DNA of 64,000 nt from a virus (Duplodnaviria > Heunggongvirae > Uroviricota > Caudoviricetes): positions 52,158-116,157 of the IMG/VR virus record IMGVR_UViG_3300026549_000047. One strand, 5' to 3'. Below, in pieces: positions 1-25,759 of the stretch (position 1 is its first letter; each line of letters begins with the position of its first letter). The position numbers and the translations under genes were made by a program. Under the pieces are notes generated by a model. The model made no database searches, had not been told where the DNA came from, and saw only the letters and a list, made by a program, of their open reading frames with translations.

Positions 1-1605
1 AATAGTGTCGTTGTCGTTAATTTCAAAAGTATTTTCGATACTATTAAATACACTAAATCTGTCCTTATAGTCAATTTGTTGAATATCAAAAGCTCTCTTT
101 TCAGAGATCATGACTAAGTGATTAATAACTACTTTTGGTGTTTTTCCTGCATGCCGGTTTATACCCACGTAGTCATCTTTATACTTACGGTCACTTACTC
201 GATCTGTAAAGACTTGAGTTAGAACCTCTTGATCAGTTGAGGTTTGCCATGTAGAAATTATTCGATTAGTTATTTCAGTCTTTTTAGCTATAACCATTTC
301 GTATTTCTCTTTATCCATTTTCTCTTTCCTCTCTTCTGCATTCTCTGCTTTATCATTTCTGATAGTTTTGTAGTAGAACTCAGCAGAGTTTTTCCATGGG
401 TTCTCCGTTAATCTTTGCCTTCCTAGTATTTGTGGAAGATCCAAGCTTATATCTACACTAAGGCAATCTACATTAGCGTCTGAGAAGATGAAAGTTCTAG
501 CATTATCAGAGTAGAAATCAGCACCAAGATAAACAGTTCTTGTACAAAGCGTAAACATTTTTCTTGGTTCTCCCTTTAGAGGAACTTTTCCAATAGTCCA
601 TGCTCTGCCTATTTCCTTTTGAATCTTTTTTAGATTATCGGGGGTATTACTACATAAGATTGTTGTTTCATCCGGAGTTAGGTTACATTTTTTTATGATC
701 TGTGTGATATTTTTGACAGAATTAACATAAATCATGGCCTCTCTCGAAACAACTGTTTTTACTTGACCTGTCTTTTTATCAACCTGACTAAAGGTTTCGA
801 ATCTTCCGCTCTTGTAATCAGCACAGATCTTTCTGGCTGGAGTGTAGATAGAGTTTATTATTCTTACCTTTAAGTTTGGTTTTCTAATGCGGCTAGGGTC
901 TGCACTCTCCCAATCTAGTTCGTAATAAGGAAGATTAGCAAACTCTGGAATCATAGCCAAATATTGATCAAGCATGGGAGTAGCGGAGACATAACAAACT
1001 TTCTGCACACCCTGTAAGACATTCACGAACTCTAATTCAACGTCTGCTTTAAATCTGCTGTCGGTAAAAATTGACTGAAACTCATCAATAATCACTTGAT
1101 ACCTGTCAAATTCTTCTAGAATATCTTTAAGAATTCGAAAAGAATCATAAGTAACGAGTACTTTAATAGGTTTGCCGTGAAACCGTCTATCGAGAATATA
1201 ATTTCCCAGTTCGACCCTAAGTTTTTCAGTAAAGACTCTTTCATCCTCTTTTCTTTGGGTTTCTAAGTCGTTTAGGTATTTCTTTTTCTCTTCTTCAGTC
1301 ATTTCTCTCGTTGGATCATCTTCTCCTTCTGGCTTGTCAATTTCCTTGTCTACTCCCAAGTCCACGTCATACTTATCGTTGTGTACTCTAAAAACCTCTC
1401 CTAAGTGTTGTTCCCACTTATTTAGAATCAACATATTTCTAGGACTACACAAAATAGTATCTTGGTTATTAGTCAAACACCATTCAGTAAATCCACACCC
1501 AGGAATTTGTTTGTCCATGATGTGTGGATGCTGTGGTAATTCAAATTCTTTCCAATCACCAATGTACCTGATTCCGGCAGGTACCACCAATACGTTTTTA
1601 GTCAT
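1..1605 (-). CDS. SF2 helicase-like ATPase, 3' part cut by window edge; paralog of 57085..59265
   Basis: ATG at 1603-1605 preceded by AGGA. Translation MTKNVLVVPAGIRYIGDWKEFELPQHPHIMDKQIPGCGFTEW...VIIDEFQS...VCYVSATPM has helicase-like motifs: Q-motif, degenerate motif I PGCGFT, Ia-like LCSPR, II DEFQ, III SAT. About 40% identical to the 57085..59265 product, with identical blocks such as GVQKVCYVSATPM. Confidence 0.6.
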   Translation of the reverse strand, partial: MTKNVLVVPAGIRYIGDWKEFELPQHPHIMDKQIPGCGFTEWCLTNNQDTILCSPRNMLILNKWEQHLGEVFRVHNDKYDVDLGVDKEIDKPEGEDDPTREMTEEEKKKYLNDLETQRKEDERVFTEKLRVELGNYILDRRFHGKPIKVLVTYDSFRILKDILEEFDRYQVIIDEFQSIFTDSRFKADVELEFVNVLQGVQKVCYVSATPMLDQYLAMIPEFANLPYYELDWESADPSRIRKPNLKVRIINSIYTPARKICADYKSGRFETFSQVDKKTGQVKTVVSREAMIYVNSVKNITQIIKKCNLTPDETTILCSNTPDNLKKIQKEIGRAWTIGKVPLKGEPRKMFTLCTRTVYLGADFYSDNARTFIFSDANVDCLSVDISLDLPQILGRQRLTENPWKNSAEFYYKTIRNDKAENAEERKEKMDKEKYEMVIAKKTEITNRIISTWQTSTDQEVLTQVFTDRVSDRKYKDDYVGINRHAGKTPKVVINHLVMISEKRAFDIQQIDYKDRFSVFNSIENTFEINDNDTI

Positions 1606-1819
1606 ATATCCTTTAATTTATATTTTATTTGTCCAAAAGAAATAATCCCCACTTGCGAAAGTTAGGATTATTTTATCTATCATATATAAGGGTTTTATAC
1701 CTTTTCTAGACGTAAAAATAAAAAGGGACACTACGGTCCCACCTTCTTTTCCTCCTTTCTTTCTCATTAATAAGGTTTTCACAGCCTTATAGGTGTAATA
1801 ATTAAATAACTTTTTATTT

Positions 1820-2320
1820 ATGTGTAGATTTTGTGAGAAATTAGCTTACGGAGACGAAGAACATAAAATGATTGAGCCATTGGCTGAAACAAAGAATATT
1901 GTACTAGCTATCGATGATATTAACTCCCCAATTTATAAGAGAACAAATGACGCCACTATGACTGTCTATAACTCAGCTACCTCAGAGACGGATCAGATCG
2001 GAATTAACTATTGTCCTAAGTGTGGGCGACCTCTAAGAAAAATTCAAACCCACCCGATCACTAGAGAAGCTTTCAAAGGAAATGACTGGATTGTAGATGT
2101 GTACCCAGGGCGAGAGGTTTATATTCACAAAAACAAGAAGGGCGTTTTTGCTAGAGTTATAGCTTATGCTAACGGAAGGACAGACCTAGTTGTACACGAT
2201 GGTGATAAAACTACTGTTGAGGGTTTTAGGGCTCAGGTTCGTGTAGAGACTCTGGAGGATATTAAAGTTGTCCTTGGAGTGTATGGACTCACTACTCGGT
2301 TCGACTATGAAAATCTTTGA
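1820..2320 (+). CDS. hypothetical protein with CxxC...CxxC zinc-ribbon
   Basis: 166 aa ORF; CRFC and CPKCG pairs; tight spacing to neighbours. Confidence 0.5.
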   Translation: MCRFCEKLAYGDEEHKMIEPLAETKNIVLAIDDINSPIYKRTNDATMTVYNSATSETDQIGINYCPKCGRPLRKIQTHPITREAFKGNDWIVDVYPGREVYIHKNKKGVFARVIAYANGRTDLVVHDGDKTTVEGFRAQVRVETLEDIKVVLGVYGLTTRFDYENL

Positions 2321-2549
2321 ACACTATAAAACCCCTGACGATCTTTACTACATTGTATTATCTTATGTAGAGAGACATTGTCTGGAGTTCAGAGATAGTC
2401 CATATCGCCCTCCCGGAACACCTGCTCCAAAGAGAGTTAGGGACCTGACCTTAGAGGAGTTTAAGAAGTACGCTAAAGAGGCGACCGATTATTATATGTC
2501 AAAAACAGAACCCTCCACGGAGGAAGAATTTATAATGAGCAATGACTGA
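2268..2549 (+). CDS. hypothetical protein (true start probably the internal Met near 2304)
   Basis: ORF overlaps the previous gene's 3' end in another frame; no recognisable motif. Confidence 0.35.
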   Translation: MSLECMDSLLGSTMKIFEHYKTPDDLYYIVLSYVERHCLEFRDSPYRPPGTPAPKRVRDLTLEEFKKYAKEATDYYMSKTEPSTEEEFIMSND

Positions 2550-3012
2550 CTTACAGAAACAGATTGACGAGAAATGGAAACTTGTCGAGGAAAAGCGACT
2601 TAAGTATGAAAAGGCAGAATCTGAGCGTAATTCGCTTAGAGATGACTACTATGAATGTAGGAGGAGTATTAATGACGAGATAGAAGAGCTTAAGCGAAAA
2701 GATGCCCTAGAGAGATATGGTTTCTATATTGGCCAGTACTTCGTAACAGAGGATAATCATTCCTGGACCATGTTAGGAAGAATAACTGGAATATATCAAG
2801 GAGGCAATTCCTTTACCTATGAAGGATTCAGGTTAGAGATAAAAGAGAAGAAGGAGAACTGGGATCTTTCTATCAGCCACTTTAATACGAATACAATAGA
2901 TATATCTGAACTAACCTATAAGAAGGAAGCAAGGCTTATCTCCAGAGACGAAGCGCTTCAGATACTATATAGGTATCAAAATCAATTCTCCAGTTTAGGG
3001 AAGGAGTTTTAA
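2542..3012 (+). CDS. hypothetical protein, N-terminal coiled-coil
   Basis: 156 aa ORF, ATGA overlap with upstream gene; charged heptad-like N-terminus. Confidence 0.5.
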   Translation: MTDLQKQIDEKWKLVEEKRLKYEKAESERNSLRDDYYECRRSINDEIEELKRKDALERYGFYIGQYFVTEDNHSWTMLGRITGIYQGGNSFTYEGFRLEIKEKKENWDLSISHFNTNTIDISELTYKKEARLISRDEALQILYRYQNQFSSLGKEF

Positions 3013-3036
3013 TAGCTCCTTTTCTTTTTTTTTTCG
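3000..3036 (+). terminator. rho-independent terminator
   Basis: AAGGAG-ttttaatag-CTCCTT hairpin followed by a T-run of more than 10 directly after the 2542..3012 stop. A second hairpin ACTCACG...CGTGAGT at about 3058-3090 with flanking T-runs may terminate the convergent minus-strand gene. Confidence 0.5.
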
Positions 3037-3166
3037 AGGACAAAAATAAAAAGAACTCACGACACAAAACTAAACGTGAGTCTTTGATTTTTTTGCTTAA
3101 CGCTATTTTCTGGTTAGCTTATCCTATATTATGTAACGCCAGGAGGCTTATTCTTTGGTATCACTG

Positions 3167-3685
3167 TTACCAAACTTCTATGATTCCGTTGGGTCTTTTC
3201 AACCAATAGGTTTCCTGACCTGTACTATCTTTTCCCATCCTGATTGGTGTATCGCACGGATAGCCTGTCTGTCGTCCTTGATTATTCCAAGGATAATCTC
3301 CCGGGATATAACCTGGGATCATTGGCTTTCCATAATAACCACCCGTGTTATAGGGATCTGATAGCATAGTCTTATAATAGGACGGATCAAACATACGATT
3401 TATGTTGTTCGCTACATCCATTACACCACCGAGTATATTCATTGTTCCACTCAGTGCCATTTGACCTACTCTTAACCCGTTCATTAGCTTTACTGACCCC
3501 TCACTCGGAGCCATAATAGGCATGGGTTCATCTGTAGGATCCTGCTGATTGTCTTCTTCGTTGTTCTTTAAAGTGTTCCCTCCACGACTAAGCTTACTTA
3601 GCCCAGCGTAAAGAGCTACACCCCCCACGATCGCAGCCAAGAGTTTGATACCAGTGGCAGCGATATTAATGTAATTCGCCTTCAT
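3167..3685 (-). CDS. membrane-anchored Gly/Tyr/Pro-rich hypothetical protein
   Basis: 172 aa; one N-terminal hydrophobic helix (IAATGIKLLAAIVGGVALYAGL); low-complexity G/Y/P-rich C-terminus. Confidence 0.5.
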   Translation of the reverse strand: MKANYINIAATGIKLLAAIVGGVALYAGLSKLSRGGNTLKNNEEDNQQDPTDEPMPIMAPSEGSVKLMNGLRVGQMALSGTMNILGGVMDVANNINRMFDPSYYKTMLSDPYNTGGYYGKPMIPGYIPGDYPWNNQGRQTGYPCDTPIRMGKDSTGQETYWLKRPNGIIEVW

Positions 3686-3869
3686 TGAGAGTTTTCGGAT
3701 TCGGTTATGTTCTGTCTAATGTTCTTCTTGTCCTGCCAAAAACTCCCTTGTTCTGTGTCTCTCGGTCTGTTCATCTTTAGGTAACTAACCCGTTCATTTG
3801 TTTAATTGTTAAAAATTGTTCTTCTTATATCAACGGCGCGCCAATAGCGTCATTTCATTCCTAAGGGTT

Positions 3870-4418
3870 TTATCTCGTATGCTTGTTTTCCGCTAGAGCA
3901 ATGAGACATTCCCTAACTTTGTCTAAGCATTTCCCCAGGAGATTCGTTCCTCTCCAGTTCTTTGGATCTTCACACTTAGGGTCTTCCCAACTTAAGCCAA
4001 TAGCCCAGATTCTATCGTATGGGGAGGCCTCAACAAAGTGTTTCTCTGCCCAATCAGGGTTGAGAAGTTTTGCTTTAAGGTCTGGATTCTGAGAATACTT
4101 AAGGAAGTTTCCATCGAACATTACTTTCTCTCTAATGGGTGCCCAAACGGCATCGTTATAACCCCTAACCTTTTGGCCAAGATTTCTTGCTTCCTGTGGC
4201 GTATTCACTAGGAGAATCTGTTTAGCGATCTCCCAATCTTTGAAAGTAATTGCTTTCCACCACATGAAGTATTGCTCCGTGCAGAAGAACTCTTGTATTG
4301 GAGTCCCTGTTATCTTCCCTATAATGGTTTTATCATCTAGGGTAACAAAGAAAGGAGCCCTCTTAAAATTACTGGGCCACTCTTTCCAGAAAAATACGTA
4401 ATCGTCTGTTATTCTCAT
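3870..4418 (-). CDS. NADAR-domain protein (YbiA/DUF1768 family), candidate ADP-ribosyl-guanine hydrolase
   Basis: FFWKEWPSNF...FCTEQYFMWWKA.F.D...AKQIL....P.EA..LGQKV...WAPIREKVMFDGNFLKYSQNPDLKAKLLNP...WRGTNLLGKCLDKVRE matches the NADAR signature blocks (FSNF, EHYFQ, KF, NLLG..LM.VR). Confidence 0.7.
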   Translation of the reverse strand: MRITDDYVFFWKEWPSNFKRAPFFVTLDDKTIIGKITGTPIQEFFCTEQYFMWWKAITFKDWEIAKQILLVNTPQEARNLGQKVRGYNDAVWAPIREKVMFDGNFLKYSQNPDLKAKLLNPDWAEKHFVEASPYDRIWAIGLSWEDPKCEDPKNWRGTNLLGKCLDKVRECLIALAENKHTR

Positions 4419-4423
4419 CTTCT

Positions 4424-4666
4424 CTAATCAAACCACTCAAGGCAACCTTCTGTGGATGCCCATATTTCTTCTTCTCCTGGGCGACCATGTCCTGCGTTCG
4501 TTGGACGTCCATGTTTTTCTGCCCACTCACGATATCCACAGTGACCTGATTCACTAGGTCTCTCCGAATCAAACCACATACATTGTCCACAACATGCATG
4601 ACCATAGTAGTGTTCGTGATCTTGGATCTCCTCATCGAAAATCCTTTTTCCTATCATGTTTCTCAT
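4424..4666 (-). CDS. small Cys/His-rich hypothetical protein
   Basis: 80 aa with HACCGQCMW...HCGY pattern; overlaps the alternative ORF 4369..4635, which is less protein-like. Confidence 0.35.
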   Translation of the reverse strand: MRNMIGKRIFDEEIQDHEHYYGHACCGQCMWFDSERPSESGHCGYREWAEKHGRPTNAGHGRPGEEEIWASTEGCLEWFD

Positions 4667-4667
4667 A

Positions 4668-4886
4668 CTAGTCGTCGTTATAATCCCTACAGTCGTCTGC
4701 CGGGGTTAGTGATTCAACCGCCTTTCCTTTCTTATGACACCACCTTTGATGCCAACCAATAGGATGAGAATCGCAGTCCCTGTTAGTGGGATCGCATACT
4801 GAATTCCAGCATCTTCCACATACTCGTCCGTATTCGTCTTCAGAGATTGCGTTGTCTAAGATCTGTTGTTTATTTGTTTTCTTCAT
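4668..4886 (-). CDS. small Cys-rich hypothetical protein
   Basis: 72 aa; CGRCWNSVCD...CDSH...WCH; good gene packing. Confidence 0.4.
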   Translation of the reverse strand: MKKTNKQQILDNAISEDEYGRVCGRCWNSVCDPTNRDCDSHPIGWHQRWCHKKGKAVESLTPADDCRDYNDD

Positions 4887-4930
4887 TACAGAAATAAGGG
4901 AGAGAACTTATACTGTCCCCTCCCTATCTA

Positions 4931-5329
4931 TTAGAGAATATTAACCATTCGGTCAAAGATCTTAGCTATACCAGCCCTATCTAAGAAAGCTGAATAGTTC
5001 CTGAAAACAGGAGTCCTTACCTTGAATTGAAGGATGGGAATGATGTCTCCTGCCACCCATACATCCAGTCGTCTTGCTTTTGGAATAAAAACCAACGACC
5101 CAAGATCCTGTTTAGGATAATCCGTTCCTGCCACAGTGAATCGATATACCTCATCCTCGTCGCTCTCCATTATCTCAAACCTTGGGGCTGTGACATTGAA
5201 TACAACTCGAACTGCTTCATACATAGCTTTCACTTTTAGGATGACCGATGATCCTCGCTCCTGTTGAAAAAACTTATTTGGGTCTTTAACAAGAGCAAAT
5301 TTTTGTTTAGTGTACTCTGTATTTAACAT
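4931..5329 (-). CDS. hypothetical protein
   Basis: 132 aa ORF in a co-directional operon; overlaps the next gene by 7 nt. Confidence 0.5.
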   Translation of the reverse strand: MLNTEYTKQKFALVKDPNKFFQQERGSSVILKVKAMYEAVRVVFNVTAPRFEIMESDEDEVYRFTVAGTDYPKQDLGSLVFIPKARRLDVWVAGDIIPILQFKVRTPVFRNYSAFLDRAGIAKIFDRMVNIL

Positions 5330-5787
5330 AGCTTTTTAATTTCTTCTATTATATCATCTAAGACTCCATCAAAGAATGATACTGGTTTGTCAGAGAATAT
5401 CCTGATTGTTCCAGGCTGTACCTCTACGAAGAGCTTGAATTCTAGGAGCCAAACATCAGACTTTCCCAAGAGCCCAAACTTTCTAAAGGCCCCTGAGATA
5501 AAGTCTACCTGACTGATGAGTGTCCAGCCAGTAATGTCTTTTTCTTTTAGTTCCGGATCTACCTCCAGGAGGAAATTATCCGACATTAATCTGGCCGGTG
5601 CATTTATATACTCAGAGACAGGTGCTTGGCAACAGAATTCAGTGGGTTGACCATTTGCCTTCAGGATGATGCTTCTTGTATCTGTTACGAATACAATAGC
5701 ACCTTCCTGAATTTTATCCCAACTCTTCTCTAAGTTTTCTCTTGAACTCATCCTAATAAATGAGATACCAGAATGAATACTAGCCAT
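5323..5787 (-). CDS. hypothetical protein
   Basis: 154 aa ORF, same operon. Confidence 0.5.
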   Translation of the reverse strand: MASIHSGISFIRMSSRENLEKSWDKIQEGAIVFVTDTRSIILKANGQPTEFCCQAPVSEYINAPARLMSDNFLLEVDPELKEKDITGWTLISQVDFISGAFRKFGLLGKSDVWLLEFKLFVEVQPGTIRIFSDKPVSFFDGVLDDIIEEIKKLC

Positions 5788-5791
5788 AACT

Positions 5792-8557
5792 TTATTTCAT
5801 CGTAACAGTTGTCACTCCAGAGTCGTTTAGGCTCAGGGTGAGAGACTTGTTATTGAAGGCTGGGATGCTCTCCATATGAGATGATATCATAATAAGACCA
5901 ACATTCATTTGATTGATCAAATCAAGTACTACATCATGGTTTCCTGCATCGAGGTGCTTTAAGAATTCGTCCATGACCAAGAGACCCATCCTGGTAACAA
6001 TCTTCGAGAGGAAGTCTACATCCAAGAGCGTCTTCTGACCTTCACTACAATTCTTATACTGAACTGGATTACCATAGAGCATGTAGTATGACTCTAGATT
6101 GAGATGATCTTTTCGATTGCCTTTACCTTCAGTCTCTATAATACCGTATTTAATACGATTATCACTGAACTGTTCTGCCAGGCGAGACATAATCTCCTTG
6201 TAGATAACTCCCGTTGGACCAGTCAGTTTAATGTATTCCTGGTAAGCAGCTACTACCTGACTCATCTGATCAATCTGTCCCTGATATTCAGTCAAGGTTC
6301 TTTCGGCGTTAGCTCTATCCTCATTGAGGGTATTGTATTGTTGCCAACACATAAGGTCAGCCTCAACCCTAGCCATCTGATCCATGAAGTCATCTGGCAG
6401 TTCAACTTTCTCTGGGATTGGTCCAGTCTGAGAGATGTGCATATTAATCGTTGCTAGGGTTCCTTGGAGAGTTTCCAGCTCCTTTGTTATTCTTTCTATG
6501 TCACGTTTCTCTGAGACTAGTTCGCTGGTTTTTGCGTTAAGAGAGGATGTCGTATTTCTCAGGCCGGAATCAATATCTTCTTTTTCATGGTAGCCCGCAT
6601 CCCAGAACTCTTGATACACTTGTCCCTGCTTGGTAAGAAGTTCTTGAATCTTTTCGTCAAGTTCTCTCTTATGGGCTTCCAGGTGTTCATTGTTCTCAAT
6701 AGGTCTACCACAACCAGGACAGATCTTCTTCTGATCAAGTCCCTGCCGTTCCATATAGAGACGTCGTCCTTCTAGTTTAATCTCTTGGAGAGCAGATGTC
6801 TTAGTGGCAATCCAATCAAGGGTTTCCCTATTACTAGCGATTTCCTGATCTATATCGGCTACAGTTCTCTGTTGTCTCTGTTCCGCCATGAGAGAACTTA
6901 TTCGAGATTCTGTATTCTCTTTCTGTGCTTGGAGATTTGCCGTCATGGTCATAAACTGGTTATAGTTCACCCACTTTTTTTGTAGGATACTTCCAAGTTC
7001 CCTCTTTTCACGAAGTTCTTTTTCAGAAACTCCAGGAAGTTGAATATTATCCAGCTTAGTTCGGATATATCCCAAGAGTTCGCGAGTTTTATCAATCTCA
7101 GCCTTCCATCCTCTACAACTCTCTACGTATTTATTGTAGAGTTCTGTTGCGGTGTCGTTATAGGCATCAATCTTATCCATTTTATAAAACTTACTGATTA
7201 TTTCACTTTTCCTTTCGGGAGTGATGTCGCCAATAAGTTTCGGATGGTCGGAGTCGAAGAAGTAGATATCCATATAGTCGATGAAGGGGAACCTAACGTG
7301 CATGTCCTTTCGGAATTCTGTTACATTATTGTACTTCTGTGGTTCTCCGTTTATCCAGAATCCATACTTCTTAGAACCTCTTTGAATCTTATAACCATTT
7401 CCTTGGTACAAGAATTCAACCTCAGTTATACATTCTTTCGTACCGAACTGAACAAAGTCTTTCAGGCTAGAGTTTTCTTGGAATGCATATTTAATAGCAC
7501 TTAGGAGACTACTCTTACCAGAACCATTTGATCCTGTGATTAGAACTTTATCCATATCACCAAAGAATAGCTCAACCTCCTCTATACTTCGCCAGTTCTT
7601 ACAGTAGAATCTAGTGATGACAAAATTGAAGTCAACTTCTTTCTTGTCAATGTCCTTTATGTTCTTTAAGACCTCACTATGAATGTCCTTCAGTCCATTA
7701 TCTAGGATAATACCATTAACAAGTTTGTCAATTTCTTCCCAGGCAGGTACTTTGATATCCTTGACACCTCCTGAGATGCTTTGATTCTCTGGTTTATATA
7801 CACTCCATATGCCATTCTCTGGGTTCCAACCTTCTTCATCTCTGATTGATGTATGCTGGAATCTCATGAGATTGTTGTGGGGATTTAGGTTAACATATTC
7901 GATTTTCTTGGTACTACAGTCTAGGACAATTCCCGTTGAGTACTCGCTGTCTCCCATTTTACATCTCTGGGGGATACCGATTGAGATATACTTTCCTGTT
8001 CTCCCCGGCTTATGGATATCGCCGCATATGGCAATGTCGAATTTTCTTTCATCAAGTTTCTGAGAATGGAATTGATCCTCTTCACTGTAGCTGATAGTAG
8101 CATGAGTGAATAAGACATCCACTTTTCCACTTATCCAGGAGAGATCAAATTCTGGTCTCCAGTTATAGAATCCGATTCGACAACCATCTATGGTAGTTTC
8201 TTTTTTATCCGCATAGTAGAGGTTGGGTGGCAACATAACCGATAGGCAAGAGTCTGAAAATTCGATATCATTACTCTTAGCATCAGCATCATGGTTGCCC
8301 CAGATTATATAGCCAACTTTGAAATATTTCATTAACGTGTCAAGGAAGAGTTTAACCTCCGCTTGTACATACGGTCTAACTATACTTTTCTCTAGGGTAT
8401 CTCCAGCGATGACTATAACATCACAGCCATTTGCTTGACCAGCCTCTATTATGTTCTTACAGACTGTTCTAGTCTGATAGAGTCTATACTTTTCGCTTGG
8501 GTTTCTTTGTGGGTAATCGTGTATGTGAATATCTGCTATTGCTAGGATCTTCGTCAT
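5792..8557 (-). CDS. fused Mre11/SbcD nuclease - Rad50/SbcC ATPase (single 921 aa polypeptide)
   Basis: N-terminal calcineurin-like phosphoesterase motifs (IADIHIHD, GDTLE, GNHD). These are followed by a Rad50 P-loop TGSNGSGKSSLLSAIKYAF, a long coiled coil with CPGCGRP zinc hook, a signature SEGQKTLLD, a Walker B LLVMDEF and a D-loop. Confidence 0.8.
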   Translation of the reverse strand: MTKILAIADIHIHDYPQRNPSEKYRLYQTRTVCKNIIEAGQANGCDVIVIAGDTLEKSIVRPYVQAEVKLFLDTLMKYFKVGYIIWGNHDADAKSNDIEFSDSCLSVMLPPNLYYADKKETTIDGCRIGFYNWRPEFDLSWISGKVDVLFTHATISYSEEDQFHSQKLDERKFDIAICGDIHKPGRTGKYISIGIPQRCKMGDSEYSTGIVLDCSTKKIEYVNLNPHNNLMRFQHTSIRDEEGWNPENGIWSVYKPENQSISGGVKDIKVPAWEEIDKLVNGIILDNGLKDIHSEVLKNIKDIDKKEVDFNFVITRFYCKNWRSIEEVELFFGDMDKVLITGSNGSGKSSLLSAIKYAFQENSSLKDFVQFGTKECITEVEFLYQGNGYKIQRGSKKYGFWINGEPQKYNNVTEFRKDMHVRFPFIDYMDIYFFDSDHPKLIGDITPERKSEIISKFYKMDKIDAYNDTATELYNKYVESCRGWKAEIDKTRELLGYIRTKLDNIQLPGVSEKELREKRELGSILQKKWVNYNQFMTMTANLQAQKENTESRISSLMAEQRQQRTVADIDQEIASNRETLDWIATKTSALQEIKLEGRRLYMERQGLDQKKICPGCGRPIENNEHLEAHKRELDEKIQELLTKQGQVYQEFWDAGYHEKEDIDSGLRNTTSSLNAKTSELVSEKRDIERITKELETLQGTLATINMHISQTGPIPEKVELPDDFMDQMARVEADLMCWQQYNTLNEDRANAERTLTEYQGQIDQMSQVVAAYQEYIKLTGPTGVIYKEIMSRLAEQFSDNRIKYGIIETEGKGNRKDHLNLESYYMLYGNPVQYKNCSEGQKTLLDVDFLSKIVTRMGLLVMDEFLKHLDAGNHDVVLDLINQMNVGLIMISSHMESIPAFNNKSLTLSLNDSGVTTVTMK

Positions 8558-9081
8558 AGAGTAGACATTATCTGTTTATAGTTTGCCATCAGCCATTGGA
8601 AAGCAGCAAAGGAGTGTTTACAAAGGAGAGTTACTCCTCTCTTTCCTTTAGGTTCCTCAGTCATGGCTTGACCTAAGGTACCTCTAATCCACTCGTTCTT
8701 AAAGAGTGAATCGCGCTTATCCAAGAGATATGCACTTCGATACATAAAATCCGCACAGTCACAGTAAATTTTAACGCGATTCTCTGCCCAATCAGTCAGG
8801 GAGAAATCTGGGTCAATTTGAATATAGATATAGTGCGTATTTCCAGTATCTGATGTCACGGCCAGTTTAAGGGTTATATAAAATACTTTGAGAGTATTCT
8901 TCGTAAATAGATTCTTAAACTTACTAAGTGGCGTTTCTTCTTTCAGGGTATAGAATGTATCATCTAGACGAACAGCACATTTGGCAGCTCGATCTTGTCT
9001 ACCCTGATCAACCTTCATAAGTTCACCTAATGTATAGGGTTTCCCGAGTATATTATCAAGTAGTCCAGCCATATCTCTCAA
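8554..9081 (-). CDS. hypothetical protein
   Basis: 175 aa ORF, 4-nt overlap coupling with neighbours. Confidence 0.5.
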   Translation of the reverse strand: MRDMAGLLDNILGKPYTLGELMKVDQGRQDRAAKCAVRLDDTFYTLKEETPLSKFKNLFTKNTLKVFYITLKLAVTSDTGNTHYIYIQIDPDFSLTDWAENRVKIYCDCADFMYRSAYLLDKRDSLFKNEWIRGTLGQAMTEEPKGKRGVTLLCKHSFAAFQWLMANYKQIMSTL

Positions 9082-9308
9082 TGAATTTGGTTAATGTCGA
9101 CGAGAGGTTTAACATTTCCCGTCAAAGTTATCACTTGATTTTTATTTTTAATCCATAGCCCTGCAAAAGATGGGGCAGATTTATCTCTACCATTTCCACT
9201 ATATAGGGGTTCTATCTCGGATTTAGGAATAAAGATATTATCCTTAAAGAGGCGTTCTGTCTCGGGGTCAAACTTATAGACTCCAGCCTTACTTACTATC
9301 TCTATCAT
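9078..9308 (-). CDS. hypothetical protein
   Basis: 76 aa ORF, translationally coupled (ATGA overlaps) on both sides. Confidence 0.4.
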   Translation of the reverse strand: MIEIVSKAGVYKFDPETERLFKDNIFIPKSEIEPLYSGNGRDKSAPSFAGLWIKNKNQVITLTGNVKPLVDINQIH

Positions 9309-10357
9309 CGCTCACAATACATTTTTTGGTCAAATCTACTCATGAACGTCATAAAGAAGGAGTCACTAATGTTTGTAATTCCATACTTATCCAAGAACTT
9401 ATGCCAGTCTTGGAGTGAACCTAAGCGACCACAGATAGGGAGATATTCAAGAATCAGTCTTTTGGCTTCCTCAAATCTTGGGTACTTGGCTACGTCATAT
9501 GTACTAAGCTGTTTATCGAAAAGTTCACGATTTTCTACATCCGAGTAATCCCCAGATAAGATATGATCAATGGCTGTATCGTAATTAACTCCATCCTTCT
9601 TTGATGTTCTCATACCATTATGACTATTTCCTAGTGCGTTCTGATATGCACCATACGCATAAAGACTTAATCTTCCTTTCAGGTTGTCGGGAATATTATT
9701 ATAGACTTTATCATAGGTGACAATTTCTGCTTGTTGTCCGTATTTGGGGATCTTGAGTTTATCCATTTTTGGAGTCAAGCAATAATCTATATCAGAGTCG
9801 TTTGTCACTAGGACACTTGGTTTTTCATTTTCACTATACAAGAGCATTGAAGCTAGGTAAGCCAAGTTATCGTATTCCCAACCGGGGACACTAATGGAAG
9901 GTATTCCGAAAGAATTCATATTTCTAACGAATCCCCACTTAGCATCAAACCTTACTTCGTTTTTATAGAGTTTTTCATAAGCTAATTCCAGGTCCTCTTG
10001 AGAGGTATCTGGGTCTGCTTTCATGGCCTCGTATTTATCTCGGGTCATGTATCCTTTTAGGGGATCTCCTTTTCCTTTTTCCCCTTCTATATCACCACGA
10101 TCGTCTTTATAAGCTCCCTCAAGGATTTGTGTGGTGACATATCCTTTATCTCCATCCCATTTATCTAGGAATAGTACATACTTGTCTGCACTTATTCCAT
10201 AGTCTCTGGGAATTTTATTCATCGTGTAAATGCAAGTTCGCATAAGCTCCGCTGCCGTGTATTCTCCAGGTTTTTTATCTTTCGATACACCGAAAAGATT
10301 CTTCTGGAGGATGACTGAGAAGTCTATGATTGCATATGCATATTTAGTACTTAACAT
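9305..10357 (-). CDS. T4 RNase H-like 5'-3' exonuclease / flap endonuclease (PIN/FEN)
   Basis: YAIIDFSVILQ..., YVLFLDKWDGDKGY...RGD and LVTNDSDIDYC parallel the T4 rnh blocks ICLIDFSQIAL / IVLCIDNAKSGYWRR / IISSDGDFTQL. Confidence 0.6.
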   Translation of the reverse strand: MLSTKYAYAIIDFSVILQKNLFGVSKDKKPGEYTAAELMRTCIYTMNKIPRDYGISADKYVLFLDKWDGDKGYVTTQILEGAYKDDRGDIEGEKGKGDPLKGYMTRDKYEAMKADPDTSQEDLELAYEKLYKNEVRFDAKWGFVRNMNSFGIPSISVPGWEYDNLAYLASMLLYSENEKPSVLVTNDSDIDYCLTPKMDKLKIPKYGQQAEIVTYDKVYNNIPDNLKGRLSLYAYGAYQNALGNSHNGMRTSKKDGVNYDTAIDHILSGDYSDVENRELFDKQLSTYDVAKYPRFEEAKRLILEYLPICGRLGSLQDWHKFLDKYGITNISDSFFMTFMSRFDQKMYCER

Positions 10358-10432
10358 GTTCTCCTTTAAAGAATTAATAAAGGTAAGAGAGTGAGTCTCT
10401 AGAGCTCTTGTTCTCTTACCTGAGTTGAATCG

Positions 10433-11746
10433 TTAGAAAGGCAGTCCATTAGCACCACCGCCAAAGCCTCCTGCGAAAGAGGGCTGTGAGAAAGGTGCAC
10501 TCTGGGGCTGAGCAGCCTGCTGTGCCGTACCTGCAACGGGTGCTCCCGTCAAGGGATCAATGTGTGATGCGGCGGGATTCTGGAATGGATTGTCGTTACG
10601 ATCAGCAACGGTCTGACCATTCTGAACTACATTATTGTTGCCGTATCCACCTACACCCTGTGCTGATGGTGCAGCCTGCACATTCATCTGAGCCAAGATA
10701 GGATCATTTGTCTGTGGGGTTGCAGCAGCTTTAGCAGCCTGGTTAGCGAGAGCGGTCTGATTGGTAGCCTGGATAGCTTCCTCAACAGAAGTTCCGTTCT
10801 GCTTAGCCATACGAATCTTAGCCAACTGGTCGGTCATGAATTCAATGGCCTCCTGAATGAGAGACTTATTGAATAGACGACGCTGATCAGCAGGTACAGA
10901 TTCGTCCTCACGATTAGCCTGCCAGCCAAGGAATGTTTCAACTGGATTCTGCATCAACTCCATGTCACTGGGGTCAATACTAATACCGTTCAGGAATGCT
11001 TCTGCTCCGAGTGTGTGACTAACCGAGATATTAAATCCGGGGCCATCGCTCTTGCTAATATTAAGAAGCATGAATCCTTTACGACCTGTCAGTTCGCGGT
11101 TGTACACATCAGCCAGCCATGCATCGTTACCAATGCCAGAGGTGATGTTAGTGTCAGCAATGCTATTACCAACAATCTCAGGGAACGCTTTACTCGTCAT
11201 CACAAACAGAGCATTAAAGTTCTGACGGACAGGAGTACGAGTATCCTGAACTGACCAGAAGTTAGGACAGTTACCGTAGAACACGGTATAGTTCTTACGA
11301 CGGATCAGACTACGAACAGTAGGATCAGTTGCATTGTTCTTGGCATCGAGCTCTGTAAAGAGTTCCTCCCAGACAGCATAAGCCTGACGCAAAAGTGACT
11401 CATCGGAAGCCGTCAATGACGAAACCTCACGACCTGTCGTCTGGTCTTTGATGGTATAGGCCTGCAGAGGCAAGAACTTAATCCAAGCCTGATAATTCTG
11501 CTCCTGACCATCGGCCGTTACATTACGACGAGGCATGCTAATCTCACGTGTATTAGCCAGACTCACATAAGGGAATCCACTAATTACGGAAGGGATTGGC
11601 AGAATCTGATAACGACCCATGTTAGTTGGGGCCGACAGATATACACGCTCAATCATTCTCTTTTTCTCGAAATTGCGCTTCTTATTAGAAGGGCTCAAAC
11701 TCTGTAATTTCTCCAAAAAGCTGTCTACATTACTAAACTGATTCAT
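10433..11746 (-). CDS. ssDNA-binding protein, T4 gp32-like (tentative)
   Basis: QNYQAWIKFLPLQ resembles gp32 GNGQAVIRFLPSK. Long Gln/Ala/Gly-rich C-terminal tail ends ...GGANGLPF, reminiscent of SSB C-terminal tips. It sits beside the replication genes. Confidence 0.45.
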   Translation of the reverse strand: MNQFSNVDSFLEKLQSLSPSNKKRNFEKKRMIERVYLSAPTNMGRYQILPIPSVISGFPYVSLANTREISMPRRNVTADGQEQNYQAWIKFLPLQAYTIKDQTTGREVSSLTASDESLLRQAYAVWEELFTELDAKNNATDPTVRSLIRRKNYTVFYGNCPNFWSVQDTRTPVRQNFNALFVMTSKAFPEIVGNSIADTNITSGIGNDAWLADVYNRELTGRKGFMLLNISKSDGPGFNISVSHTLGAEAFLNGISIDPSDMELMQNPVETFLGWQANREDESVPADQRRLFNKSLIQEAIEFMTDQLAKIRMAKQNGTSVEEAIQATNQTALANQAAKAAATPQTNDPILAQMNVQAAPSAQGVGGYGNNNVVQNGQTVADRNDNPFQNPAASHIDPLTGAPVAGTAQQAAQPQSAPFSQPSFAGGFGGGANGLPF

Positions 11747-11950
11747 AAAAAATTGTTTGTTTTAAAATAAAGATAATTTTATTAAATAAATAATTCTTCT
11801 ATGAGGAGGCTCTTCACTTAATGTCCTCCTCGTGTATAAGAATTTCACTTTCCGTTGGAGCGCGTTTTTTACGTTTCAGAGAACCAGAAAACCCTATACG
11901 TGATATAAAGGGAACCGGGCGACCCAAAGAGCCCGGATAAGTATAATAAT

Positions 11951-14593
11951 ATGAGAAGAATAGTAATTATTGATCAAATTGAAACACCAAATTATTTAGC
12001 GTATTTTGGATGTGGACTAGGAAACGAGATCTATACTGTTCAGTATCTTCAGGAACTTGAAGAAGATAAACTAAAACAGGTACTAGCTCTCGGACCCGGA
12101 GATGCTGCCATGCTTGTTGGAGCAGAGCCTTTCCGGTATCTCAGACAGTTTTATCATTTCGGAATTCGTGGTGAGAACTACTTTGATTGTGCTAAACTTC
12201 ATCGTTTAAGTATAGAGGGTGGAGCGTACGTTAAAGAGATTATCGACTTTCCAGATCAGAAAACTATTGATGAATTCCTGTCCCCAGAGTTTACACGGAA
12301 AATTGATTTTCCAGGATTTAAGTATAAAGTCATTCATGACTGGGAGGGAGCACTTCGATTCTTAGATTGGTGTGATTCACTTCCCCTAGATACGGACTTT
12401 GGATTTGACTATGAGGCATCTGGTATGCCTATGGAGAAGGTCTTTGCTGTGTCGGGGTATGCTATTTCTACTGAGAAGTATGCGGGGTTTGTTAGCTTGA
12501 CAGACATACGGCATCAAGTGGGAGAAGATAGTAAGGAGTATCGAGAAGTTTTGGATAGAACAGCTAAACTTCTAGTCAAAAGACAAAAACATATGTGGAC
12601 CTATAACCTTCAGTATGAGTATCAGGTAAGTCATAGACTTTTAGGAGTTGATCTATACGATTTATGTGATGCATCTGTGGTTAATGTCCTTGATGGAAAT
12701 CACGAGAAGCACTTCTCTCTCAAATTTACTGCCCAGTTTGTCTTGGGAGTTGATGTTTGGGATTCTGATTTCGATCGTCTTAGTGAACTTATCGAGCACA
12801 TGATTTTGGAGGAGGTTGGTAAACTTAAGAGAGATAAACATTTCGTCGTTAAGATTACTCCCGATACCTTTGAGAATACTCCCGAGTGGGAAGAGATTTG
12901 TGCTAGATATCCTGAATATGTAGATGAATTTAGAGCATTGATTCTTGAGTATTGGGGCAATCAGTTTATGCCTATCCCAAGTGAGATTCTCGGTAAATAC
13001 TGTTGTCTTGACTCTTTCTATACCCTGATGATCTACCTTAAGAAGAAGCCAGAGTATACACAAGAAGCTTTCGAAGTATTTATGGATAACCTTCGACTGG
13101 GTGCTCGTTTGATGAGCCATGGTCATTATATTGATGAGAATTATCGCTTGAAATATGATAAGTATTGTCGACAAATGATGGCTTGGTCGATTACATGGAA
13201 TACGAGAGCTCTTTGTTGGTTGAAGATGGAGAAGCATAAAGCTAAGGCTACAAATATAAAGAGATATAAAGACATTGCCATTAAGCTCCTAGAGGAAGGT
13301 AATTTCTTCCAGGGCAATTCCGTTGAGATTGTTAAGTACCTTTTAAGTACTAATATCGATACTATGGACACCACTGAAACCGGCTTAAATGAAGGTCAGA
13401 TTAAGATGAAGTATGGTGAGAAATTCGCCGATCAATTCGTTCAGCTGGTCAAAGATGCTATGGTTGAGGTGAAAATGAAAGGCAAGATTGATGAAGGAAT
13501 TGTCAGGAAGAAAAAGATTCTTGGAGTTTTAGCGGAAAATGCTAAACACTTGTTAGGTCTAGATCAACTTAAGTACGATGACAATGGAAAGATCAATTCC
13601 AAGCACATTGAGCTTGAGAAGTATATGTACTACAAAAAAGTTTATGAAGAGCTTGAGAGAATAAATAATAGACAGCTTAAGGATGTTAATAATATCCCTG
13701 ACACTATCTATATCTTTGGACAGAAGATGGAAATCTTAGAGTATGCAAACTACTTGCAAGATAATTATTTCCAGTGTCTTAGCCCAGAGAAAAACGATAA
13801 AATTGTCTATGATATGATGATGAATCAACAGCTTCCCGGTCTTCGTGCTAAGACAGCCTTCTTAGGTGCCATTCTTGAAAGTACCCAGCAGCTACCAGAA
13901 ACAGATAAGTTTTATAGTAGCAGAAACATAACTGACATTAATGTTGGTTTTGCCGAGATGATGAAGGAGTGGGAGACCTACTGGAAGAACGTAGATAGCG
14001 ACGGCATGATCCATTGGCATAGTTCTTTATATCCAGACAAGGTGTTTAACATCGCTATGGAACTATATCGTAGTCCTAAAACAAGTTCAAAAGTTTCAAC
14101 AAAGGGCGTTAAAGCGACTCTTTATGAAGTAGTTGACAAGGTAAAAGATATATGGACTGATTTTGCTGGATTTAATTGCCAGACACAGTTCTTCCCCGAA
14201 TATGCAAAGGATTATGAGAACTATGAGAGTCCATTTGATCCGATTCTGGACTTGAGTGATGAATTCTACTTCATGAGAAAGTTCACTATAAACTATCTAG
14301 TTTTCAAAAAGCATGCTAAGATGTTGTCAGTGTATGCTGGAGAAGACGGTATGTTTAATAAGAGGGCTAAGTATGTAATCGAAGATGAACACCACATTCC
14401 GATTCGAGATGCGGATCCTGATGAGCCAGGAGCAGTGAAGAAAAACTTTACTCCATACGAAGTGCTTATGAAGTCATCAAAGCGCTGGAGCTCAAGCTTC
14501 CACACGATTATCAGTCATGGAGATATAAAGAACTGTCTTGTACCTGCCCCAAGCTGGGATGAAAATGGAGACATCGTATATGGAGGCGCTGAT
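11951..14593 (+). CDS. DNA polymerase, family A: exon 1 (3'-5' exo domain to motif A ...GDIVYGGAD)
   Basis: The 895 aa ORF has an Exo I-like DFGFDYEASG block. It ends ...CLVPAPSWDENGDIVYGGAD(Q), aligning to the Pol I AF.AP....L.SADYSQIELR block just before motif A. The track's tail LLTYFDINKTSVT is predicted intron read-through. Confidence 0.75.
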
Positions 14594-17623: not shown

Positions 17624-18886
17624 ATGTTATATTTAGACTGTTGGAAATCTATGAAATATTATCGAAAAGATCAAGGAATGTTAGAAGATATTTCAGAAGT
17701 AGAGATATCTATTTCTGGAAAATTTAGAATAAAAAGAAGTAAACGAGATATTTCTGTCTATGATATTGGTCAAGGATATCCGGGCATTCTTTTGATCCGA
17801 GATGGTAGAGTTTCTAGATATCGTGCTCATGTAGCTATGATATCCTCTTTCGGTAGTTATGATTTTTCTAAATCGGGTTTAGTTGTAGATCATATAAATC
17901 GAAATATATGTGACTATAGATTATGTAATCTTCGATTAGTTACTGTCACTGAAAATAATAAGAATAGAGTTGTATTTAGAAAGAGCAGAGCATATATACT
18001 AGTTAATAGTAATGGGGATATAATAAAATCTGCTACTTTTCCAAACGAAGGGTCGAAGTTATATACCACTTTAAATAGGTTTAGGGAGAATAGGAAAGAT
18101 TATCTAGTAATCTCTTTATCAGAAGACTGTTTTTCGAAAATAAAAAATGTGAATAATATAAGCTATTTATTAAATCAAACTTGGAAAAAAGTAGGAACAA
18201 GCAATTTATACGTTGGGGAGAATGGTCTTCTGAAAATGAGTACGAACTTTGGACTCTATTTATCTTTCGGATCTATAAATAAAAATGGTTATTATGTGTT
18301 CAATAATAGGACTGCCAGGAAAGACAATTCTCAGTACGTTCACATACTAGTAGCTAAATATTTCCTTAATAGCGGTCAACCAATCGATAGTAAAAAGTTC
18401 TCCGTAGACCATATAGATACTAATAAAGAGAATAATAATTACCATAATCTTAGAATAGTATCATTAAAGGATAATATTAATAATCAGAATACTAAGATAA
18501 AACAAGAAAGATCTATTTCTATTAATTATCTAGGAGAAATTTATAAAATTCGAAGTGTTTTGGAGTTCTCAAAAATGACAGGACATAGTAGATCATCCAT
18601 AATGAAATGGATTTCAGATGGGATTAATATGAGAGGTCCTGCTGAAATTTTAGAAATTAAATACATTAGTAAAGAAGAAAAGTATGATGCGTTTAATAAT
18701 AATGAATTTATAGATGATATAAATTTTTTAAAATTTACTAGTATGGAAGATCTGAAAAGTATTAGATCTATAAACGAATTTATTAAAGAAAACAAGATAC
18801 GTGATATGTCTTTATTAAAAATTCAACTCCTGAATCAAATAAAGGATCTCGGTCTGTTAGATAGTATAAAATTATATTCCGAATAA
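17624..18886 (+). CDS. free-standing HNH homing endonuclease with two HNH-like motifs
   Basis: GYPGILLIRDGRVSRYRAHVAMISSF...VVDHINRNICDYRLCNLRLVTVTENNKN is a classic phage HNH pattern. A second motif is FSVDHIDTNKENNNYHNLRIVSLKDN. HTH-like MTGHSRSSIMKWI. Located immediately downstream of the intron-rich polymerase gene. The real start may be the Met near 17678. Confidence 0.7.
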   Translation: MLYLDCWKSMKYYRKDQGMLEDISEVEISISGKFRIKRSKRDISVYDIGQGYPGILLIRDGRVSRYRAHVAMISSFGSYDFSKSGLVVDHINRNICDYRLCNLRLVTVTENNKNRVVFRKSRAYILVNSNGDIIKSATFPNEGSKLYTTLNRFRENRKDYLVISLSEDCFSKIKNVNNISYLLNQTWKKVGTSNLYVGENGLLKMSTNFGLYLSFGSINKNGYYVFNNRTARKDNSQYVHILVAKYFLNSGQPIDSKKFSVDHIDTNKENNNYHNLRIVSLKDNINNQNTKIKQERSISINYLGEIYKIRSVLEFSKMTGHSRSSIMKWISDGINMRGPAEILEIKYISKEEKYDAFNNNEFIDDINFLKFTSMEDLKSIRSINEFIKENKIRDMSLLKIQLLNQIKDLGLLDSIKLYSE

Positions 18887-20815: not shown

Positions 20816-21389
20816 AGCAGTTTACTTCGAGAGTATTAATGGAAGTTTTCTCAGGATGGGGTGGACAGAGTATGATAGAAATCTCTTAACCCCAGATGAT
20901 GGAGAGATCTGGAATGTTATGGCCTCTACCTGGTTCGTTGATACTAGTAGTAGGAGGATAATATTCAATGGACAATCTAATGAGTTTAAAGATCTTGAGA
21001 TTAAGCAGGAGAATATTAGTAACTGGAATGAGGCCGTCGATAGATTCAAGTGGTCTCAGGACAGACTTGATATTCAAGTTGTTTTATCGGTTGAGTTTGG
21101 CATGAGGAATGTGCCCATCGAAGAATATAACTTTGCTGCTCCAGTAAAAAGTTATCATCCTATTGAGAACTTTCATAATTTTAGGGTAGGCCAATTGAAA
21201 GAGATGCTTAGTAGTATATCAGATGATGACTTTATTATGGTTCAGGCTGATTCTCACTCAGGTAACTCTTACCCAATAGCGCACATTGAGGATAGTACTT
21301 CAATAGGATTCTGGGAACTTAGGTTTGACTCAAGCCGAGATTTCTGGAATACCCTGAATGAATATAAGAACAGTGGAAAGAAGGTGTGA
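20796..21389 (+). CDS. hypothetical protein
   Basis: 197 aa ORF in operon context. Confidence 0.45.
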   Translation: MATKQLRAVYFESINGSFLRMGWTEYDRNLLTPDDGEIWNVMASTWFVDTSSRRIIFNGQSNEFKDLEIKQENISNWNEAVDRFKWSQDRLDIQVVLSVEFGMRNVPIEEYNFAAPVKSYHPIENFHNFRVGQLKEMLSSISDDDFIMVQADSHSGNSYPIAHIEDSTSIGFWELRFDSSRDFWNTLNEYKNSGKKV

Positions 21390-22251
21390 TATATGCATCG
21401 AAGAACAGTGTGGCGGGAAACGTGACTGTAATTGCGATACTTGCCAAGTCAAAGATAAATGTCCGAAGATCCTCAGACCAACTATTAGGATAACCAATAG
21501 GTGTACTCAAGAGTGCAGCCATTGCTGTTTTGAATCTTCTCCGAAGTCTAATACAAATATGACTGTCGAGAAGGCAAAGGAGATTGCTAAGTTTCTAGAG
21601 GCCAATCAGATCCATGATTTGAACATGATGGGTGGAGAATTCTTCTGTAACCCAGATTGGTTGGAAGTTCTCATGGAACTTGGTCTTCCAGATCACATTA
21701 TCTATTTCAGATTAGTATCGAACAGTGATTGGTATAAGAATGACACCGTGAAGCAAGGTCTCCTTTCTTTGAGAGATGCACTTGGACCCAAGTTTCATAT
21801 GTCACTTTCAAAAGATAGGTGGCATACAAATGTTGGTGTAGAGAAGGCTGAGAAATGGTTAGTGGAAAATAATATTCTAACGATCGTTGCCAACAAGAGC
21901 AACACGAAACAAGAGAGTATTGTTCCTGTCGGCCGTGCAGAGTGGGGTTTCTGGGGATTCTTTGATACGATACAGAATCAATGTGCTGGAGATGAAGAGC
22001 ACTATACTTTCTTGATTGACGAAGAAGGTCTAATCTACAAATGCAACTTCGGTGTTTGGCCTTACGCAAAAGTGGATGAATACTTAGAGGGAGGTTTTAG
22101 GGAGAGATTCAAGTCCTATAACCAGAAGTTCTATAAAATATTTATCCCTAACTGCAAGGTATGCTATAGGAGCGCGAAGAGGTTTGAAACCGAAGAAGAG
22201 AACAAAGATCAGATCAGATACGATCGATTAGTAGTAAAAAGAGGTTACTAA
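21358..22251 (+). CDS. radical SAM enzyme (CX3CX2C) with additional N-terminal Cys cluster
   Basis: NRCTQECSHCCF is the CxxxCxxC radical-SAM cluster motif, followed by MMGGEFF (a GGEP-like SAM-binding motif). The N-terminus CDICIEEQCGGKRDCNCDTCQVKDKC suggests an auxiliary Fe-S site. It could be an NrdG-like or QueE-like activase, but it is not assignable from sequence alone. Confidence 0.55.
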   Translation: MNIRTVERRCDICIEEQCGGKRDCNCDTCQVKDKCPKILRPTIRITNRCTQECSHCCFESSPKSNTNMTVEKAKEIAKFLEANQIHDLNMMGGEFFCNPDWLEVLMELGLPDHIIYFRLVSNSDWYKNDTVKQGLLSLRDALGPKFHMSLSKDRWHTNVGVEKAEKWLVENNILTIVANKSNTKQESIVPVGRAEWGFWGFFDTIQNQCAGDEEHYTFLIDEEGLIYKCNFGVWPYAKVDEYLEGGFRERFKSYNQKFYKIFIPNCKVCYRSAKRFETEEENKDQIRYDRLVVKRGY

Positions 22252-22343
22252 AAGGGTAATCTCTTTATTTTTTCCCTCTGAAACGTAAAAAACGCGTTCA
22301 GGAAAGGGTATAATTCTTAAGCAATGAAGAAAAATAATACATC

Positions 22344-22414
22344 GCGGAGTGGAGAAGCTGGTATCTCGTCAGCCTCATAAGCTGAAGATCGTGGGATCGT
22401 GACCCACCTCCGCA
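22344..22414 (+). tRNA. tRNA-Met or tRNA-Ile2 candidate, anticodon CAT
   Basis: Cloverleaf: acceptor GCGGAG/CTCCGC; D stem GAGA/TCTC with GG in the loop; anticodon stem TCAGC/GCTGA with loop C-U-CAU-AA; 5-nt variable loop; T stem GTGGG/CCCAC. The T-loop ATCGTGA is non-canonical (A54...T58). Confidence 0.45.
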
Positions 22415-22472
22415 ACTATAAAAGAGATGATAACAATTTGTTAATAATTAACTTAAATTTTAAAAAGAAAGA

Positions 22473-23504: not shown

Positions 23505-23750
23505 TAAAAAGATTTGTGGAAGGTGACTAGTCGGTAGTTACTTAAAAGGTTCGAATCCTCCTTCCACAGCAAAAAAGCTGGAAATGAGGTGTTCCTAGCT
23601 ATATGAGAGAGGGCAACGGGGTAAAATATTGGACTATAATGCTAGCAATAGTCTCCTTAAGCTGACAAATTTGTTTTCATGGTTTTAGGGTTGTGGTCAA
23701 CCTAAGGATAAAACAATAGACAACCTCTCCAAAATAAAAACCCCGTTTAT

Positions 23751-23822
23751 GGACCGGTAGCTCAGTGGTAGAGCGGATGTTTGAAGGGCATCGCGTCGGT
23801 GGTTCAATTCCATCTCGGTCCA
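23751..23822 (+). tRNA. tRNA-Phe (GAA)
   Basis: Canonical cloverleaf: acceptor GGACCGG/TCGGTCC; D arm GCTCAGTGGTAGAGC; anticodon loop TT-GAA-GG; T arm GGTGGTTCAATTCCATC; discriminator A. Confidence 0.85.
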
Positions 23823-23828
23823 CGAGTT

Positions 23829-25613: not shown

Positions 25614-25684
25614 AAATAAAATTGGGTTCATATAAAGTTATTATAATTCCAAACCAGATACCCAACTGTTAGGGAATTATTTAA

Positions 25685-25757: not shown

Positions 25758-25759
25758 CT

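Follow-up and report, generated by a model that had tools for sequence, protein, structure and literature searches.

A candidate counter-defence NADAR protein of an uncultured jumbo phage, encoded next to two small cysteine-rich genes

The NADAR gene and its surroundings

The window (the whole stretch of 64,000 nucleotides of viral DNA analysed here) carries a gene for a NADAR protein that directly follows two small cysteine-rich genes, which we call CysA and CysB. The gene set lies among DNA replication and recombination genes, near a fused Mre11/Rad50-like gene. The features of the locus, in window coordinates, are as follows.

3167..3685, minus strand: protein of 172 aa whose N-terminus carries a hydrophobic helix, separated from the NADAR gene by 184 nt on the downstream side
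3870..4418, minus strand: NADAR gene, 182 aa, ATG to TAA, stand-alone and of the AdfN-Bas60 / PnNADAR type
4424..4666, minus strand: CysB, 80 aa, with invariant C26, C29, C43 and C75; its stop lies 5 nt before the NADAR start
4668..4886, minus strand: CysA, 72 aa, with invariant C23, C26, C31, C38, H41, C50, H51 and C66; its stop lies 1 nt before the CysB start
4897..4925, minus strand: terminator-like hairpin with an 11-bp stem followed by a T-rich tail, a pattern match from a consensus scan
5792-8557, minus strand: Mre11/Rad50-like fusion protein of 921 aa, in which an Mre11-like metallophosphoesterase (residues 3-184) is followed by a Rad50/SbcC-like SMC ATPase

The NADAR gene occupies 3870-4418 exactly as originally predicted, being an ATG-to-TAA ORF on the minus strand that encodes 182 aa, and the NADAR signature that had been read from its sequence is real and far beyond chance. 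The protein matches Pfam PF08719 with 137.2 bits (E 8.2e-40; gathering cut-off 35.1) over positions 2-162 of the 163 in the profile, and it matches the PHROG family phrog_1017, a family of unknown function, with E 8e-44. The domain spans residues 10-172 of the 182, without a DarG1-type N-terminal extension, and the start codon is backed by the alignment with the coliphage protein AdfN-Bas60, which runs from Met1 (MRITD.YVFF). On these matches, the ORF is a full-length, intact member of the NADAR superfamily (PF08719 / DUF1768).

Other profiles were matched as well. The PADLOC candidate-defence component PDC-M42C was hit with 115 bits, implying that close bacterial relatives of the protein sit in candidate defence loci, while the NCBIfam model NF053876 (NADAR family anti-phage protein DS32_2) gave 30.1 bits, far under its cut-off of 240. 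A second NCBIfam model, TIGR02464, named 'riboflavin biosynthesis intermediates N-glycosidase', gave 132 bits against a cut-off of 73.7. Because the experimentally validated AdfN-Bas60 also passes TIGR02464, with 109 bits, this model is superfamily-wide and does not discriminate, and we therefore dropped its name as evidence for a riboflavin role.

The terminator-like hairpin falls in the 44-nt gap between an upstream 132-aa ORF and CysA, and from its position and pattern it is a probable transcription-unit boundary. In the related locus L040, the upstream gene call overlaps CysA, so there is no gap for such a hairpin. On the downstream side, homologues of the 172-aa protein that are 52-60% identical follow NADAR in L031 and L033, ORFs of similar size occupy its place in L036-38 and L042 (judged by size and position), and this putative transmembrane (TM) protein is missing from L040. 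Its C-terminal region is conserved (...GYIPGDYPWN...TYWL.RPN.IIEVW). The neighbours of 172, 132 and 154 aa gave no match in Pfam, PHROG or PADLOC. In sister lineages the Mre11- and Rad50-like parts are separate genes (Metallophos of 216-218 aa and SMC_N of about 270 aa).

The window comes from a metagenomic contig of ~384 kb, most likely that of a jumbo phage. Megablast of window positions 1-12000 against 50,697 phage records returned no match, indicating a phage without a close cultured relative. A batch scan of the window ORFs of at least 100 aa found fragments of a split multisubunit RNA polymerase (beta/beta') and a GroEL-like chaperonin (PHROG 5725, E 9e-112), and a tail fibre protein and homing endonucleases are encoded on the contig. 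The 59 long window ORFs gave no match to an ART, Macro, PARG, RtcB, Nudix, NAD-salvage or riboflavin-pathway family. The same scan also brought up a peptidyl-tRNA hydrolase, a dUTPase, a dCTP deaminase-like protein, a Band7/flotillin protein, an OmpA-family domain, an actin-like ALP/MreB-like protein, a family-A DNA polymerase and an NAD-dependent DNA ligase-like protein; most window proteins are without any Pfam match.

Several minor features lie elsewhere on the contig. Seven tRNA genes (Met, Phe, Thr, Leu x2, Gln and Cys) form a plus-strand block at window positions 22343-28246; the TTG-start ORFs at 23781 and 25700 begin within tRNA genes, so their real starts are probably further downstream. 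Just upstream of this block, a 297-aa radical SAM / 4Fe-4S (Fer4_12) protein is encoded at 21358-22251 on the plus strand, for which a tRNA- or nucleotide-modifying role would be a guess. HNH and homing endonuclease families were matched in the window, and a 420-aa ORF at 17624-18886 on the plus strand has two HNH_3 stretches. About 7 kb past the left end of the window, on the same contig (L001:17410-18402), a 330-aa ORF has a weak RVT_1 (reverse transcriptase) match and could be part of a diversity-generating retroelement or a group II intron.

Fold, active site and relationship to tested NADARs

The AlphaFold2 model of the NADAR protein, built with 42 homologues as input, has a mean pLDDT of 96.6 and a pTM of 0.91. 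When the model was searched with Foldseek, the significant PDB matches were only two solved NADARs, the Phytophthora nicotianae protein PnNADAR in complex with ADP-ribose (8BAU; TM 0.76, E 6.5e-10, 32% identity) and E. coli YbiA (2B3W; TM 0.69, 24% identity in the structural alignment). At the level of the predicted structure, the NADAR alpha+beta fold is confirmed in the window protein.

To compare active sites, we used an alignment of 42 NADAR homologues reaching down to 37% identity, in which E48, K55, W92, E130 and D135 of the window protein are among the invariant columns. E48 and K55 are spaced by 7 residues, as in the known catalytic Glu/Lys pairs. By mutagenesis, the pair for guanine-ADPr hydrolysis is E88/K95 in the E. 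coli C7 NADAR, where K95 corresponds to K50 in PnNADAR (PMC11543638), and E36/K43 are needed for the same reaction in the T4 AdfN (PMC11825919); the residue roles that we give for the window protein are carried over from these two papers. E48/K55 and E130 align with the EQYFMKRK and YEAS motifs of 8BAU, and E130 is the counterpart of the superfamily-conserved Glu. DarG1-type NADARs have a specific catalytic Asp two residues ahead of this conserved Glu (D171/E173 in E. coli C7; PMC11543638). In the window protein, F128 (FVE130) would sit where this Asp falls, as judged by spacing, and AdfN-Bas60 carries the same FVEAS motif. From the conserved residues and the model, the window NADAR looks catalytically competent, and the invariance of the Glu/Lys pair and the other active-site positions argues for selection on catalysis.

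By sequence comparison, the nearest experimentally tested relative of the window NADAR is AdfN-Bas60 (bas60_0111, QXV83846.1), with 43% identity over the full length (BLASTP E 4e-37). AdfN-Bas60, which is encoded by phages Bas60-62, neutralises DarT1 in E. coli and lets RB69, T5 and Bas25 form plaques again on DarTG1 hosts, but the thymine-specific DarTG2 is not countered (Johannesman et al. 2025, PMC11825919). The two proteins are both stand-alone phage NADARs of similar size (183 aa in Bas60, 182 aa here), have the same MRITD.YVFF start and the CxEQY..W.KA and FVEASPYD motifs in common, and behave alike on the TIGR02464 and NF053876 profiles. They differ in 57% of their residues and in their carriers, a 150-kb coliphage (Escherichia phage PaulScherrer, Justusliebigvirus) on the one side and the ~384-kb uncultured jumbo phage on the other. 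The upstream neighbours differ too: unlike in the window, the Bas60 gene is preceded by a gene for an FtsH-like protease and an ORF of 467 aa and not by CysA or CysB. AdfN-Bas60 has been grouped with the "non-YbiA, non-DarG1 bacterial NADARs" (PMC11825919), and the window NADAR, on its overall similarity, belongs with it in this non-YbiA, non-DarG1 bacterial-type branch.

The best match among solved structures is PnNADAR (8BAU; Schuller et al. 2023, PMC11543638), in which the Glu/Lys pair aligns. PnNADAR resembles the window protein in being stand-alone and having no DarT link, and it acts on G-ADPr; it differs in being eukaryotic and in having a longer insertion after the IWGIG motif. E. coli YbiA has the same fold and also passes TIGR02464, but it is distant from the window NADAR, whose gene is phage-encoded and without riboflavin gene context. 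Single-sequence phmmer gave E 6e-16 for PnNADAR vs 7e-3 for YbiA, and the subfamily profile gave 126 bits vs 65 bits. The original prediction had named placement in a riboflavin-intermediate glycosidase clade only as a result that would speak against it; in substance, the protein is not so placed, as AdfN-Bas60 passes TIGR02464 as well and the profile prefers PnNADAR to YbiA.

The validated AdfNs in our comparison are AdfN-Bas60 and AdfN-T4. T4 gp30.3 (AdfN-T4) has no significant BLASTP similarity to the window NADAR (E 0.26). AdfN-T4 and the DarG1-type antitoxins belong to the same superfamily and would have the proposed enzymatic removal of guanine-linked ADP-ribose in common with the window protein. 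Unlike the DarG1-type antitoxins, however, the window NADAR has no N-terminal extension and no adjacent DarT, and it has Phe at the presumed position of the DarG1 Asp; among the PDB matches there was no NADAR chain of the DarG1 type, and this held for the subfamily profile at E <= 1 too. No DarT1 ADP-ribosyltransferase lies next to the gene, whose neighbours are CysA, CysB, the TM protein and the fused Mre11/Rad50-like protein. The window NADAR is, in short, a phage-encoded orphan with clear homology to one validated AdfN and with no cognate toxin found within the window.

The cysteine-rich genes and the arrangement across lineages

The two small Cys-rich ORFs are present where they had been noted, both on the minus strand, and both proved to be conserved protein-coding genes. 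CysB is conserved at 39-47% identity over five lineages, each time directly upstream of NADAR, and CysA at 49-60% identity over the same five lineages; in the near-identical L005 variant, the changes in CysA are mostly synonymous. Neither protein has a match in Pfam, PHROG, NCBIfam or PADLOC. A cluster search over 5.8 billion proteins returned 9 clusters for CysA and 7 clusters for CysB, and an exhaustive profile search over 1.84 billion representatives gave a CysB family of 5 members with no known domain. Judged by this conservation and distribution, CysA and CysB are real genes of tiny, lineage-specific families. The four Cys of CysB presumably bind Zn, and the six Cys and two His of CysA could be ligands for two metal sites. 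We assign no fold to CysA because its AlphaFold2 model is poor (pLDDT 66) and Foldseek found no match for it in the PDB. The opening YG..VCG.C.W..S is common to CysA and CysB; paralogy of the two is unsupported (BLASTP E 0.57, hhalign probability 1.3%). One distant CysA-like protein was found without NADAR (L039).

The five lineages are the window and L031/32, L040/41, L033-38 and L042, whose NADARs are ~75%, ~74%, ~65% and ~63% identical to that of the window, respectively. The order CysA-CysB-NADAR is kept in all five, with 3-6 nt between CysB and NADAR. The flanks vary, with an SMC-type ATPase or Metallophos gene lying downstream rather than upstream. The near-identical strains L001-L006 are uninformative for the conservation of gene order. 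A variable cassette between the nuclease and NADAR genes of L004 was considered and withdrawn, since the L004 DNA is identical to the window and the gene calls alone differ. NADAR is probably co-transcribed with CysA and CysB. The suggestion in the original prediction that the Cys-rich ORFs are part of the same module as NADAR gains modest support from their tight adjacency in five lineages; because all five are related phages, the linkage is suggestive and does not amount to independent proof of a module.

Two sister lineages have an extra ORF of 100-111 aa between CysA and CysB (L033:6102-6437, L036:5669-6004 and L042:4445-4747), which the window is without. Its overlap with the start of CysB is 4 nt, and the L033 copy has a hydrophobic segment.

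NADARs that are 60-63% identical to the window protein also occur in other jumbo-phage contigs, without CysA and CysB. In some of these the gene order is RtcB - DUF488 - NADAR (L027:5310-8543 and L028-L030:5375-8519), and in L028-L030 a LAGLIDADG endonuclease ORF interrupts RtcB. The 14-nt overlap between DUF488 and NADAR suggests a conserved operon. Genes for a bacterial-type PARG and an R2K ATP-grasp protein lie near these NADARs, and in L043:1-10483 / L044 a Macro gene and a CTP_transf_like (nucleotidyltransferase) gene are also found near NADAR, with no RtcB or DUF488 called.

Proposed role and alternatives

From the comparisons above we infer that the protein is an active enzyme, what it acts on and that it serves in counter-defence, as well as any part that CysA or CysB may play. 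These comparisons support the original reading of the NADAR as a candidate counter-defence protein in that the domain is complete, the catalytic positions are invariant, the fold is that of NADARs and the protein is 43% identical to the anti-DarT1 AdfN-Bas60. We think it rather probable that the NADAR of this jumbo phage strips guanine-linked ADP-ribose from phage nucleic acid and so counters a host ART such as DarT1. In vitro, hydrolysis of G-ADPr on both DNA and RNA has been seen with every NADAR type tested to date (PMC11833690). One study found in vitro activity for both the T4 NADAR and YbiA, yet cells were left unprotected from DarT1, meaning that in vitro competence is no guarantee of an in vivo role.

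In the mechanism that we propose, NADAR would be made early or in the middle of phage infection, and a host guanine-directed ADP-ribosyltransferase (DarT1-like) would modify single-stranded phage DNA at guanine N2. NADAR would bind the ADP-ribose, K55 contacting the diphosphate and E48 and E130 being placed at the distal ribose, and would cleave by hydrolysis the N-glycosidic bond that joins ADP-ribose to guanine's exocyclic amine. The ADP-ribose would be released and the base restored, giving a replicable or translatable template on which replication could proceed. As for the AdfN proteins, the target would be the modification and not the toxin.

A different substrate is possible, although we hold it to be somewhat unlikely: the main substrate of NADAR may be RNA carrying ADP-ribosylated guanosine or cytidine, or else ADP-ribose derivatives of low molecular weight, which might arise as by-products of RNA repair or serve as signalling molecules in immunity, rather than DarT-modified DNA. 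The 60-63% identical relatives that directly follow the RtcB RNA ligase and DUF488 genes, with PARG, Macro, R2K and nucleotidyltransferase genes close by, point to roles in RNA repair or on soluble ADPr in at least part of the clade. NADARs are also able to reverse guanosine ADP-ribosylation on RNA (PMC11833690), and some of them reverse cytidine ADP-ribosylation (PMC12945103); in the view of Iyer et al. 2022, the usual targets of phage NADARs are soluble ADPr derivatives or products of RNA repair (PMC9503650). In the window and the four sister lineages, however, NADAR lies in no RNA-repair island and is next to genes for Mre11/Rad50-type DNA nucleases, RtcB, Macro and PARG are absent among the 59 long window ORFs, and the closest tested protein, AdfN-Bas60, counters a toxin that modifies DNA. 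Since the neighbours are DNA-metabolism genes and no ADPr- or RNA-repair family is found in the window, a DNA-directed role is mildly favoured. The two roles are compatible and do not exclude each other.

We consider it highly improbable that NADAR instead works without catalysis, binding or sequestering ADP-ribose or an effector and so blocking a defence that consumes NAD+ or depends on ADPr. The NADAR pocket does bind ADPr, as in the complex 8BAU, and according to its citation in PMC11825919 another phage NADAR protein, reported with Retron-Eco1, needs no enzymatic activity; against this, the subfamily shows no variation at the catalytic Glu/Lys pair or at the other active-site positions. 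That the protein is a YbiA-type housekeeping N-glycosidase, destroying reactive intermediates of the riboflavin pathway, is hardly credible in our view, for although it scores well above the TIGR02464 cut-off and several GenBank phage homologues are labelled 'YbiA-like N-glycosidase' or 'GTP cyclohydrolase II', this model takes in the entire superfamily, PnNADAR is a far stronger match than YbiA, the window ORFs include no riboflavin-pathway family, and YbiA itself hydrolyses G-ADPr in vitro.

Returning to the removal of guanine-linked ADP-ribose as the preferred role of NADAR, CysA and CysB might belong to it as parts of a three-component counter-defence module, either as accessory factors or as inhibitors of the cognate ADP-ribosyltransferase, a proposal that we regard as doubtful. 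As accessory factors, they would target or stabilise NADAR or give it specificity, comparable to the phage factor without which AdfN-T4 is not fully active. As inhibitors, they would make up a combined operon to 'block the writer and erase the mark'. Should CysA and CysB turn out to modulate NADAR or the toxin, they would count as the first accessory factors identified for a phage NADAR.

That a jumbo phage should encode a NADAR is to be expected, as one is reported for more than 48% of medium and jumbo phages (Iyer et al., PMC9503650), and counter-defence by phage NADARs is no longer a proposal, having been published in 2025 (PMC11825919). The window NADAR is a diverged member of the already characterised AdfN-type phage NADARs, published in 2024-2025. 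Because NADARs are common in such phages and the anti-DarTG1 role has been demonstrated, this protein alone changes little; it adds a diverged case from an uncultured jumbo phage to the AdfN-type NADARs and backs the erasure of base-linked ADP-ribose as a widespread phage strategy. The conserved CysA-CysB-NADAR arrangement is the only modestly new element here, and the pairing of NADAR with two lineage-specific Cys-rich mini-proteins is the point worth following. In the case described here, the phages concerned probably come from the ruminant gut. With tblastn, relatives of the window NADAR were found in 717 of the 50,697 phage records, mainly large myoviruses of Staphylococcus, Escherichia, Listeria, Enterococcus, Bacillus and Klebsiella.
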